Of a DNA stretch of 44,092 bases, positions 1 to 44,092 are shown piece after piece (positions within the stretch are counted from its first letter, which is position 1; each line of letters begins with the position of its first letter). The translations under genes were made by a program, and so were the position numbers. The DNA lies in assembly GCA_019246215.1 (NCBI GenBank), contig JAFAQT010000031.1, positions 1-44,092 on the forward strand, read 5' to 3'. Source of the DNA: Verrucomicrobiota bacterium (GTDB lineage Bacteria > Verrucomicrobiota > Verrucomicrobiia > Chthoniobacterales > JAFAMB01). The notes below the pieces were generated by a model. It was not told the origin of the DNA and searched no databases. It saw nothing but the letters and a program-made list of their open reading frames with translations.

Positions 1-108
1 CTCCAAAGAACCGGCTCCAGAACTCTGGAAGATGAAGCGGCCCTCAACGGTTCTGGACAGACAGTGGTAAAAACCCTGCCCCTCGGCTTTGACCCGGGGA
101 AAACGCAT
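1..108 (-). CDS. N-terminus of a REP-associated tyrosine (HUH/Y1, IS200-like) transposase, running off the window edge
   Basis: Manual translation from ATG at 108 gives MRFPRVKAEGQGFYHCLSRTVEGRFIFQSSGAGSLE with no stop before position 1. 'MR.PR....YH..SR...R.IF' is the typical RAYT/Y1_Tnp N-terminal signature. The HUH motif would lie outside the window. Confidence 0.7.
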   Translation of the reverse strand, partial: MRFPRVKAEGQGFYHCLSRTVEGRFIFQSSGAGSLE

Positions 109-170: not shown

Positions 171-247
171 ACATTTGACCTGTCCGTGCCACAACCCCAC
201 ATTTGACCTGTCCCCTTCATAACCTTCTGTCCCCTTCATAACCTTCT
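171..247 (+). repeat. TTTGACCTGTCC(CC) motif cluster with short tandem duplications
   Basis: ACATTTGACCTGTCC at 171-185 and 199-213. The 19-nt unit CTGTCCCCTTCATAACCTT occurs twice in tandem (208-226, 227-245). Confidence 0.9.
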
Positions 248-42369: not shown

Positions 42370-43023
42370 CTACTCGCGCAACTCCTCGATTGCCAGAGCG
42401 GCATCCTGAGCTCTGAAGATATCGGTGCCTGCTACCATAACATTCGCGCCGCATTCACGGGCGATCGCGGCGGTATTTGAATTGATGCCTCCATCCACTT
42501 CGATATGAAATTCAAGCGCACGTTCAGTACGAAGCTGAGCCGCCCGCATCACCTTGGCCATCATCGGCTCTATGAAACTTTGCCCCCCGAACCCGGGATT
42601 AACAGTCATCACCAGTAACAGATCGATCTGATCAAGGTATGGTTCCACTTTTTCGAAGGGTGTCGGCGGGCTGATCGCCAAACCGCATGTCGCGCCTGCG
42701 GCTCGGATACCCTTCAATGTATTTCCGATGTCATAATCGGGCTCGACATGGATCGTTATATTGTTCACGTAGGGAACGAATCGCGGAAAGAAATGATCCG
42801 GCCGCTCGATCATGAGATGGGTATCGAGGGGAACAGTGGCGATCTTAGCAATCGACTGCACAACGGGCGGACCAAACGAAATATTGTCGACGAAATGACC
42901 GTCCATCACGTCGAGATGCAGCCAATCCGCGCCGGCTTTCTCTATTCGCACGCACTCCGCTTCAAGACGGTTGAAATCACATGCGAGTACCGAGGGAGCC
43001 ACGATTATCGGTTTGCTGTTCAT
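42370..43023 (-). CDS. rpe: Ribulose-phosphate 3-epimerase
   Basis: APSVL, HLDVMDGHFVDNISFG, MTVNPGFGGQ, EVDGG. Confidence 0.97.
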   Translation of the reverse strand: MNSKPIIVAPSVLACDFNRLEAECVRIEKAGADWLHLDVMDGHFVDNISFGPPVVQSIAKIATVPLDTHLMIERPDHFFPRFVPYVNNITIHVEPDYDIGNTLKGIRAAGATCGLAISPPTPFEKVEPYLDQIDLLLVMTVNPGFGGQSFIEPMMAKVMRAAQLRTERALEFHIEVDGGINSNTAAIARECGANVMVAGTDIFRAQDAALAIEELRE

Positions 43024-43051
43024 TGCTTTTGCTTTCTCTTTAGCCCTTATC

Positions 43052-43522
43052 ATGACCGATTTACTGGATTTATCGAGCGATACCTATTTTATGGGCGAAG
43101 CTTTGCGACAAGCGAGGAAAGCCGAATCGCAGGATGAAGTTCCGATCGGCGCAGTGGTCGTTCGCAACGCTGAAATTATCGCGCGCGCCTGGAACCAGGT
43201 GGAAATCCTGAAAGACGCCACCGCTCACGCAGAGATGCTTGCGATCACGCAGGCTGAAAGTGTCGTCGACGACTGGCGACTGGACGATTGCGATCTTTAT
43301 GTCACCAAGGAACCGTGCCCGATGTGCGCAGGAGCCATCGTTCATGCCCGGCTCCGGCGCGTTGTTTACGGTTGCCCGGACCCAAAAACCGGCGGGGCCG
43401 GCGGTATGATCAATCTGCTCCAAATGCCGCCCTTCAATCATCAATGCGATATCACACGCGGCGTGCGAGAAAGCGAGTGTCGCGAGCTTCTGCAACGGTT
43501 TTTCAGAGCAAAACGAGGTTGA
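43052..43522 (+). CDS. tadA: tRNA adenosine(34) deaminase
   Basis: EVPIGAVVV, AHAE, EPCPMCAGA, FNH, FF..KR. Confidence 0.93.
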   Translation: MTDLLDLSSDTYFMGEALRQARKAESQDEVPIGAVVVRNAEIIARAWNQVEILKDATAHAEMLAITQAESVVDDWRLDDCDLYVTKEPCPMCAGAIVHARLRRVVYGCPDPKTGGAGGMINLLQMPPFNHQCDITRGVRESECRELLQRFFRAKRG

Positions 43523-43679: not shown

Positions 43680-43748
43680 GGGACAGCCGAAAGGGAGGGA
43701 TTACCGTTGAACTCGAGGACAGCCGAAAGGGGACGACAGCCGAAAGGG
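43680..43748 (+). repeat. Three GACAGCCGAAAGGG direct repeats
   Basis: Copies at 43682-95, 43718-31 and 43735-48, abutting GGGACAGGTCAAA. Confidence 0.9.
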
Positions 43749-43896
43749 ACAGGTCAAAGGTTGATGTCCGCTCGCAAACCTGTCTGCGGGGATTGAAAAC
43801 CGGTCTCCCTAAATAGGAGGGCAGAAATCGGCTCAGCCACCTTTCATCATTACCGCTGAACTCGAGGATTTAGCTGCGCGTGATTTGACCTGTCCC
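43746..43896. mobile_element. Non-autonomous ~150-bp element bounded by perfect 13-bp inverted repeats
   Basis: GGGACAGGTCAAA (43746-58) and TTTGACCTGTCCC (43884-96); the same motif lies beside the RAYT-like gene at the left end. Confidence 0.6.
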
Positions 43897-43995
43897 CGTG
43901 GCTATAGCGTAGCGTTGCCCCCGCAGCTATATAAATGTCCTGCGGTAAGAGAATTTCGGACCATCCACCAGATCTCGCACCTGCGCCCCGATATC

Positions 43996-44082
43996 TGACC
44001 TGTCCCCTGACTTCGGGCTCCTGTCCCCTGACTTCGGGCTCCCCTGACTTCGGGCCGTGCTGTCCCCTGACTTCGGGCCGTG
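43996..44082 (+). repeat. TGACCTGTCCCC motif followed by four tandem (CTG)TCCCCTGACTTCGGGC copies
   Basis: Units start at about 44000, 44021, 44040 and 44060 and are 19-23 nt with variable ends. Confidence 0.92.
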
Positions 44083-44092
44083 AATTTCGACC

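Follow-up and report, generated by a model that had tools for sequence, protein, structure and literature searches.

Junction-spanning tandem duplications with a nearly fixed outer breakpoint at the terminal inverted repeats of a TIRtron in Verrucomicrobiota

The window analysed here is a stretch of 44,092 nucleotides (nt) from a Verrucomicrobiota bacterium, and makes up the complete contig G000:C384 in an assembly of 3.81 Mb and 443 contigs. Both of its ends carry copies of a terminal inverted repeat of about 19 nt that belongs to a little-studied mobile element. Judged by its sequence, this is a TIRtron, a small element with a single gene, the product of which is a TIRYT (a RAYT-like single-strand DNA transposase of the HUH/Y1 type) of about 335 amino acids (aa). 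Short tandem arrays lie beside copies of this repeat. The arrays are tandem duplications that span the junction between element tip and flank and share a nearly fixed outer breakpoint, and they are probably scars left behind by nicking, extension and rejoining of DNA by the TIRYT at the TIRtron repeat; the role given to the enzyme rests on linkage and geometry. The element class is already in print; this analysis contributes statistics on the breakpoints, control comparisons and a correction of the polarity of the duplications.

Breakpoints of the duplications

The conserved repeat is approximately CRAYATYT-GACCTGTCCC-Y, and its opposite strand reads GGGGACAGGTCAAAT. The window's genome has 57 copies of GACCTGTCCC, and reversed-sequence controls gave 0 matches for words of at least 11 nt. 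Under one fixed rule for what qualifies as a tandem duplication, arrays were present at 14 of 42 TGACCTGTCCC sites in this genome, well in excess of chance: the figure was 8 of 3,000 both for positions picked at random and for other TCCC[CT] sites. A whole-genome search with Tandem Repeats Finder (TRF; period of at least 7) placed 21 arrays on the C-run side of the motif and 1 on the other side, and site by site an array was found on the outer side of the repeat at 19 of 74 sites and on the inner side at 1 of 74. Genome contigs were also scanned for the 16-mer, which returned at least 120 loci that are mostly chance single matches and serve as a control set, not as a distribution map; among the matches listed, 1 of 92 chance sites in unrelated genomes had an array (in Neobacillus, 2.2 copies of 9 nt). 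Three Terriglobia matches to the 16-mer (L046, L097 and L113) proved to be a coding coincidence in the start of a conserved gene (MTYSYTQLSQYLTCPRRYRHRYLDGW...) unrelated to the element. Contigs with the same motif and typical arrays occur in bins labelled Acidobacteriota and Planctomycetaceae (L077 and L137), which reflects either wrong binning or transfer between phyla.

Unit start and end points were mapped across motif loci, as the preliminary description of this DNA had proposed, by collapsing adjacent tandem duplications one at a time and recording the start, period and end of each, with the G of the motif as position 0. The set comprised 306 distinct GACCTGTCC sites after duplicate removal, taken from the window's genome, from loci retrieved from nine related genomes and from a further 29 named loci, of which 27 are labelled Verrucomicrobiota or Chthoniobacterales and 2 otherwise. 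It yielded 61 duplication events at 49 of the 306 sites, every one of which crosses the junction between tip and flank. The outer breakpoint lies at +21 in 21 of 61 events and at +20 to +22 in 36 of 61, and neither count was reached in 20,000 shuffles of periods among events. Inner breakpoints are scattered between -34 and +10, most often at +4 to +6, and unit lengths run from 10 to 56 nt; the standard deviation of the end is 2.67 versus 6.08 for the start, start and period are correlated at -0.91, and units that start as far in as -34, -9, -7 or -2 also end at +21. The preliminary description held that the repeated unit always restarts within CTGTCCCC and extends a variable distance into the flank. 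Most starts do fall there (47 of 61 at +2 to +8), but 12 of 61 lie at -1 to -34, and the distance into the flank is the part that hardly varies; a fixed point in the motif with a variable point in the flank is thus the reverse of the polarity that the breakpoints have.

No base preference was found at the joint between +21 and +22. Four paralogous copies diverge right after TTTGACCTGTCC and the mobile unit therefore ends at about +8 to +10. What sets the outer breakpoint is its distance from the tip, 11-12 nt or roughly one turn of the helix into the flank. Since the outer breakpoint is the fixed one, any site-specific nick should lie about 11-12 nt outside the tip, with synthesis directed toward the motif. 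Microhomology at the joints was 0 nt in 32 events, 1 nt in 17, 2 nt in 7 and 3 nt in 5. Metagenome loci fetched with a protein alignment contained the motif in 24 of 80 cases, and their 49 sites gave 7 distinct events (re-counted from 9 listed, two events of L272 having been listed twice) with ends at +16 to +25. The motif variants TACCTGTCCC, AGCCTGTCCC and GGCCTGTCCC gave 6 events only, with ends at +17 to +19 and once at +33, a number too small for a comparison of the fixed distance. Longer junction-spanning duplications of 56 nt and about 120 nt, which include the whole repeat and subterminal DNA, are present at 3' ends in L034 and L032; the 56-nt duplication likewise ends at +21.

Repeat copies and arrays in the window

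The motif TGACCTGTCCC occurs in the window at 204-214 (plus strand), 43746-43756 (minus), 43886-43896 (plus) and 43996-44006 (plus), with a one-mismatch copy at 176-186 (plus). Five matches were reached in 0 of 100 shuffled windows, for which the mean was 0.56. TRF arrays adjoin three of the motif copies, at 208-247, 43680-43749 and 43999-44078. The features at the two ends of the window are as follows.

1-108, minus: start of the TIRYT gene, 36 codons (MRFPRVKAEGQGFYHCLSRTVEGRFIFQSSGAGSLE), running off the contig edge (from translation)
109-168, minus: leader between element tip and gene start, common to three other contig ends of the genome
169-186, plus: inner terminal inverted repeat copy, slightly degenerate (CAACATTTGACCTGTCCG; motif G at 177)
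171-198, plus: unit of 28 nt across the junction, probably old and diverged, from -6 to +21 relative to the inner repeat (read from the sequence)
197-215, plus: terminal inverted repeat copy, CACATTTGACCTGTCCCC (motif G at 205)
208-247, plus: tandem array, 2.1 copies of the 19-nt unit CTGTCCCCTTCATAACCTT, unit +3 to +21 (TRF score 80, 100% matches)
43681-43748, minus: array (a), two adjacent 17-nt units (+7 to +23) and a separated third core copy
43745-43763, minus: terminal inverted repeat (a), CAACCTTTGACCTGTCCCT on the minus strand (motif G at 43755)
43746-43897, no strand: gene-less doublet of 152 bp resembling a REPIN or a miniature inverted-repeat transposable element, sites (a) and (b), two inverted repeats with C-runs outward
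43879-43897, plus: terminal inverted repeat (b), GTGATTTGACCTGTCCCC (motif G at 43887), without a convincing array in the window
43989-44007, plus: terminal inverted repeat (c), a solo end, CGATATCTGACCTGTCCCC (motif G at 43997)
43999-44082, plus: array (c) (TRF scores 100 and 127)

At the left end, the translation of 1-108 (minus) reads MRFPRVKAEGQGFYHCLSRT... and aligns with the N-terminus of full copies of 335-344 aa in G008, an 8-contig genome of the same genus; a protein search of genomes with the TIRYT query P0002 matched C384:1-132. Positions 1-185 are 92.6-95.7% identical to the contig ends of C293, C402 and C91. The array that the preliminary description reported beside the left-end motif is borne out at 208-247 and traces to a duplication with start 3, period 19 and end 21. 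The stretch 171-198 is probably an older junction-spanning duplication, seen by eye and without support from the scans: its flanks CACAACC and CATAACC are alike at 6 of 7 bases, and the next repeat copy starts at +22.

The four iterations described earlier for site (c) are confirmed with TRF support, TGACTTCGGGC being present at 44008-18, 44029-39, 44045-55 and 44068-78, so that the units measure 21, 16 and 23 nt. The original junction extends to 44018 (+21) and is followed by 44019-44039 (21 nt), 44040-44055 (16 nt), the interposed CGTG and 44060-44082 (23 nt). That unit lengths differ within one array fits separate events anchored at the intact repeat. The paralogue of this array in contig C229 has exactly one 21-nt unit fewer, and the missing unit can be placed at 44019-44039, directly after +21 (44018), a placement that is ambiguous by rotation; when the C229 copy is collapsed step by step, its units prove to end at +21 and +25. 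In contig C192 the outermost units are the most diverged. We infer that new units are added beside the intact repeat and that older ones are pushed outward.

Site (a) is confirmed as well, with two of its three copies in tandem. On the minus strand GACCTGT is followed by two tandem 17-nt units, CCCTTTCGGCTGTCGTC at 43748-43732 and CCCTTTCGGCTGTCCTC at 43731-43715, an event with start 7, period 17, end 23 and one mismatch; the third core copy (43695-43681) is separated from them and not in tandem. A 20-nt stretch, ATTACCG(T/C)TGAACTCGAGGA, is found at 43700-43719, which is within array (a) and outside the doublet, and again inside the doublet at 43851-43870, and this double occurrence suggests a nested or partly copied element end. 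Site (b) had been credited with a repeat and a diverged copy. Its two 13-mers, CCCCGTGGCTATA and CCCCGCAGCTATA, share 11 of 13 bases, start 22-24 nt apart and are not adjacent, and the pair was reported neither by TRF nor by scans for periodic runs. What supports an array at this site is a 12-nt tandem copy, TCCCCGTGGCTA, at +6 to +17 in a contig from another sample (X2; 160 nt, depth 2.3), which is weak evidence because it is a single low-depth contig.

As single-stranded DNA, the segment 43740-43902 that contains the doublet forms a fold with a terminal stem of 13 bp (-28.6 kcal/mol, z -2.38), and 2 of 200 shuffles folded equally well. The doublet is thus REPIN-like in having two inverted repeats able to pair as one hairpin. 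A copy of the doublet region with 90.5% identity is located at the end of C229. Upstream of the cluster is a gene for a TadA-type deaminase at 42971-43522 (plus), with Pfam matches to MafB19-deam (9e-43) and dCMP_cyt_deam_1 (2e-30). This gene ends about 160 nt before the repeat cluster, which therefore lies in intergenic DNA downstream of it. An Rfam scan of the window gave no family match.

A proposed mechanism for the duplications and its alternatives

In the mechanism favoured here, a TIRYT bound at the repeat would nick the strand that reads from the flank to GGGG at a fixed offset. A polymerase would extend the resulting 3'-OH toward the repeat until it stalled at the bound protein, and the tyrosine-linked 5' end would be rejoined to the new 3' end, which would leave one extra copy of the interval from the inner stop to +21. 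The arrays would then be by-product scars and not binding sites. A mirror version, in which the nick in the tip is variable and extension ends at the fixed reach of the bound enzyme, would give the same product; the version with the fixed-offset nick is preferred because a site-specific enzyme explains a fixed point better than a variable one. Rolling-circle HUH initiators and relaxases nick DNA, have the 3'-OH extended and religate the strand through a tyrosine-linked enzyme. The proposed cycle would consist of the same three steps, and would differ in that extension covers 10-30 nt into the enzyme's own binding site and adds a unit with no strand release.

Several observations weigh against this mechanism. 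HUH enzymes usually cut by sequence, TnpA_REP between C and T next to a hairpin and IS608 by guide pairing, as far as the sections consulted of the papers on them describe it, and no base is preferred at the fixed breakpoint here. Because that breakpoint lies outside the mobile unit, it is not the cut expected for transposition itself. The ends are not uniform either, 25 of 61 events falling outside +20 to +22 within a range of +14 to +29, and where copies are paralogous or related, their events cannot be regarded as fully independent of one another. No array is present at 257 of 306 sites overall, 28 of 42 in the window's genome and 66 of 74 in G008. The control for polarity is also not clean in G008, where arrays are found on the outer side at 9 and on the inner side at 5 of 74 sites; the inner-side arrays may be long units that contain whole motifs. 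Finally, paired staggered nicks followed by fill-in and end joining yield the identical product.

That last route would start from breaks with a variable nick in the tip (+2 to +8) and a fixed nick in the flank on the other strand, after which the 5' overhangs are filled and the ends joined to give what amounts to a target-site-like duplication without an insertion. It accounts for the same junction-spanning product and for the scarcity of microhomology at the joints (0-1 nt in 49 of 61 events), and it has a parallel in eukaryotic cells, in which small tandem duplications at overhang breaks are known (PMC5730883 and PMC8355091, in the sections consulted); there too the units are short, little microhomology is involved and the break is defined, but the kingdom and the repair machinery are different and no site-specific transposase takes part. 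Staggered breaks would, however, require a double-strand break and an end-joining system and a nick in the repeat so imprecise as to allow starts throughout +2 to +8 and as far in as -34, whereas Y1 HUH enzymes, as described in the literature consulted, work on single strands, and this origin is judged unlikely. Replication slippage or template switching through the structure of the repeat (its C-run, a small palindrome, the hairpin of the doublet) would need no enzyme at all. The doublet can form its 13-bp stem, and slippage can alter copy number once two units exist, as between C384 and C229, which differ by one. It does not explain how first joints arise without microhomology (32 of 61) or with 1 nt of it (17 of 61), why the units of array (c) have 21, 16 and 23 nt, as separate events would leave and the expansion of one unit would not, or why the outer end is fixed without base preference; moreover, the same 16-mer has an array at 1 of 92 sites in unrelated genomes among the matches listed, and other TCCC[CT] sites at 8 of 3,000. 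Slippage as the source is therefore somewhat less probable still than staggered breaks.

Footprints of this kind might also be left if additional copies of the element were inserted next to an existing tip and excised again many times over, since repeat copies cluster within tens of bases and, by eye, in two cases a second repeat starts at about +20 to +22 of the first (171-215 in the window; 35400 in C229). Against it, the units repeat the local flank exactly and are therefore copies of the site and not new insertions; no target-site duplication was seen by eye around full copies; and unit lengths of 10-56 nt are unlike a duplication whose size is set by a transposase, which leaves such footprints with a slim chance of being the cause. 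Two other readings are given hardly any probability. If the arrays were selected functional elements (iterons, C-runs forming an i-motif or G-quadruplex, regulatory RNA), their 2-4 spaced runs of C3-4 would make sense, but the unit sequence is different at each site with only the repeat part in common, paralogues differ in copy number, the window has no Rfam match and the fixed breakpoint would be left unexplained. If they were artefacts of assembly at collapsed repeats near contig ends, it would fit that both clusters sit at the ends of a window that is a whole contig of a 443-contig assembly and that contigs from four runs (X1-X4) break in the region with none spanning it; yet the same geometry is found inside contigs of up to 3.0 Mb in the 8-contig G008, in records with differing assembler name styles (k141_, NODE_, contig_) and within contigs C371, C192 and C422 of the window's own genome.

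If the TIRYT is indeed responsible, a broader proposition can tentatively be put forward, and stands on less firm ground than the origin of the scars: TIRYTs may act one helical turn outside their own repeat and build local minisatellites unit by unit, as a site-directed generator of tandem repeats. An enzyme that writes short tandem repeats at a chosen site would be a new source of local hypervariability near genes, the scars would be the first in vivo map of cutting by this HUH family, and they would give a clue to the local multiplication by which clusters of REP- and TIR-type repeats form. The breakpoint pattern, which comes from many events in several genomes, bears on what RAYT-type and TIRYT enzymes do with their repeats inside the cell, and a breakpoint set by distance predicts cleavage of a named strand at 11-12 nt beyond the repeat. 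There are practical consequences as well: the arrays break short-read assemblies, both ends of the window's contig being such sites, and could be misread in annotation as regulatory or CRISPR-like repeats.

The element and its transposase

The link between the motif and an HUH/Y1 (RAYT-like) enzyme that was postulated in the preliminary description is upheld, since inverted motifs flank every full related gene copy that was examined and the window itself encodes the start of such a gene. In G008 the motif clusters in islands, and five open reading frames (ORFs) with a Pfam Y1_Tnp match each lie between inverted motif copies with C-runs outward, the upstream copy being located about 45 to 95 nt before the start codon. 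The same layout is present in 14 further gene copies from genomes of the genus (G005, G006, G011, G016 and G017). G029, the protein of which is 46% identical, has the core GGGACAGGTC upstream of 3 of 3 gene copies fetched. In these loci (L172-L174) the conserved core is in the loop of a small palindrome (tacaaaGGGACAGGTCttttgta), and at one 3' end in G029 a 15-16-nt unit occurs twice next to a degenerate copy of the motif.

Across 41 related genomes surveyed, 19 of the 20 with at least 3 matches to TGACCTGTCCCC also have the protein, a count in which kin are not independent; the sole exception, G002, is an assembly of 550 contigs. The arrays likewise go with genomes that have the TIRYT. G008 has 7 full-length protein matches with 87-100% identity in addition to more distant or partial ones. 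Homologues that are 48-51% identical occur in G025 and G040 with no motif, G029 has one match of a 12-mer, and G001 has a partial gene and no motif. A search for exact inverted repeats of at least 10 nt around 29 distant homologue genes (36-45% identity, metagenome loci) returned short and probably chance arms, with the exception of the close relatives L212 and L215.

The protein is predicted to have the HUH fold. Its HUH motif is SNHFH, in which N63, H64 and H66 are invariant among 64 homologues and F65 nearly so, and the same homologues have Y176-I-D-L-N-P within AAYIDLNPVRAG, with Y176 nearly invariant and I177, L179 and N180 invariant. Y176 is presumably the catalytic tyrosine, from its likeness to the RAYT motif. 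The Pfam family Y1_Tnp (PF01797) matches with 28-35 bits versus a cut-off of 23. The structure model (mean predicted local distance difference test score 89.6) has as its top Foldseek match 4ER8_A, the RAYT of E. coli (E 7e-5, template modelling score 0.74 on the target), followed by the TnpA structures of IS608, ISDra2 and IS200; a sequence search of the PDB with P0002 gave no match. Among NCBIfam models the best is NF047646, 'REP-associated tyrosine transposase', which covers residues 137-205 only and scores 58 bits, below its cut-off of 80. Pfam returned no domain beyond Y1_Tnp at E<=5, and the C-terminal residues 197-303 are helical in the model. A different RAYT-like gene with a Y1_Tnp match in the window's genome (L001, G000:C28:3073-6339; ORF 1285-1863, 192 aa; NF047646 55 bits) was considered and set aside; its contig is without any GACCTGTCCC site.

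The sequence GGGGACAG fits GGGGWSAS, and the element is therefore placed in the TIRtron/TIRYT class. TIRtrons have been described, in the sections consulted, as RAYT-like genes between terminal inverted repeats, many of them GGGGWSAS, with gene-less dimers and clusters (Di Nocera, De Gregorio & Rocco 2013, BMC Genomics 14:522, PMC3733652; PMC6006769). Most TIRYTs fall in TnpA-Y1 subclass 2.1 (Quentin et al. 2018, PMC6006769), and TIRYTs were characterised in the earlier paper by sequence comparison, with assays proposed and yet to come (PMC3733652). The element described here agrees with this account in having a RAYT-like gene with terminal inverted repeats and not REP hairpins, and in having gene-less repeats that are single, dimeric or clustered, of which the window has one doublet and one solo end. 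It differs in being multi-copy (G008 alone has at least 7 near-full copies) and in that the C-terminal helix-turn-helix domain named for subclass 2.1 in the parts of PMC6006769 consulted was undetected by Pfam. Neither flank duplications nor a fixed breakpoint are mentioned in the consulted portions of the main text of PMC3733652 and PMC6006769, and the same is true of tandem duplication of flanks and a fixed breakpoint in the part of the RAYT and REPIN literature that was surveyed.

The REP/RAYT systems (Ton-Hoang 2012, PMC3333891; Messing 2012, 4ER8; Corneloup 2021, PMC8266576; Bertels & Rainey 2011, PMC3116915), which include the best structural match, 4ER8, are similar in that the gene lies between inverted copies of its cognate repeat and that gene-less doublets can form hairpins. 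They differ in several respects: the flanks here are inverted GGGGACAGGTCAAAT and have no GTAG-tagged palindrome or hairpin, the gene is multi-copy (RAYTs are typically one per genome) and about twice as long, the NF047646 score is under the curated cut-off, and the inferred site has no base preference, unlike the cut of TnpA_REP. With the IS200/IS605 family (IS608 and ISDra2), which transposes by 'peel and paste', the element shares the HUH/Y1 fold and an inferred cleavage at a distance from the recognised element. IS608 cleaves 19 nt from its left-end and 10 nt from its right-end element. The members of this family have same-strand subterminal hairpins without inverted repeats and often a tnpB gene, whereas only one gene lies between the ends here. 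IS608 is not known to leave a duplication, while the ends considered here are inverted repeats and the fixed point is outside the mobile unit. In the portion of PMC5027513 consulted, which does not give the cleavage distances, IS608 is described as having same-strand hairpin ends and sites picked by guide pairing.

Two other ideas about the repeat were abandoned. A promoter with TTGACC as the -35 box was dropped because the variable flank is without a -10 box at constant distance. A universal subterminal hairpin was not upheld: an inverted partial motif lies 7-24 nt inside the repeat in C371, C227 and the window (43750-43785), and other copies are without it.

Two of the islands in G008 (L032, G008:C1:217500-237499; L033, G008:C7:221000-240500) consist of short unrelated genes separated by repeats and TIRYT genes, among them genes for an AraC regulator, a glyoxalase, a bestrophin-like protein, a cupin, a methyltransferase and a DDE transposase, a layout that looks like a cassette array. 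At about 10990-11020 of L032 (minus strand), a truncated 5' part of a TIRYT element (about 150 nt) directly adjoins a complete element, as though a copy had inserted into or alongside an existing one.

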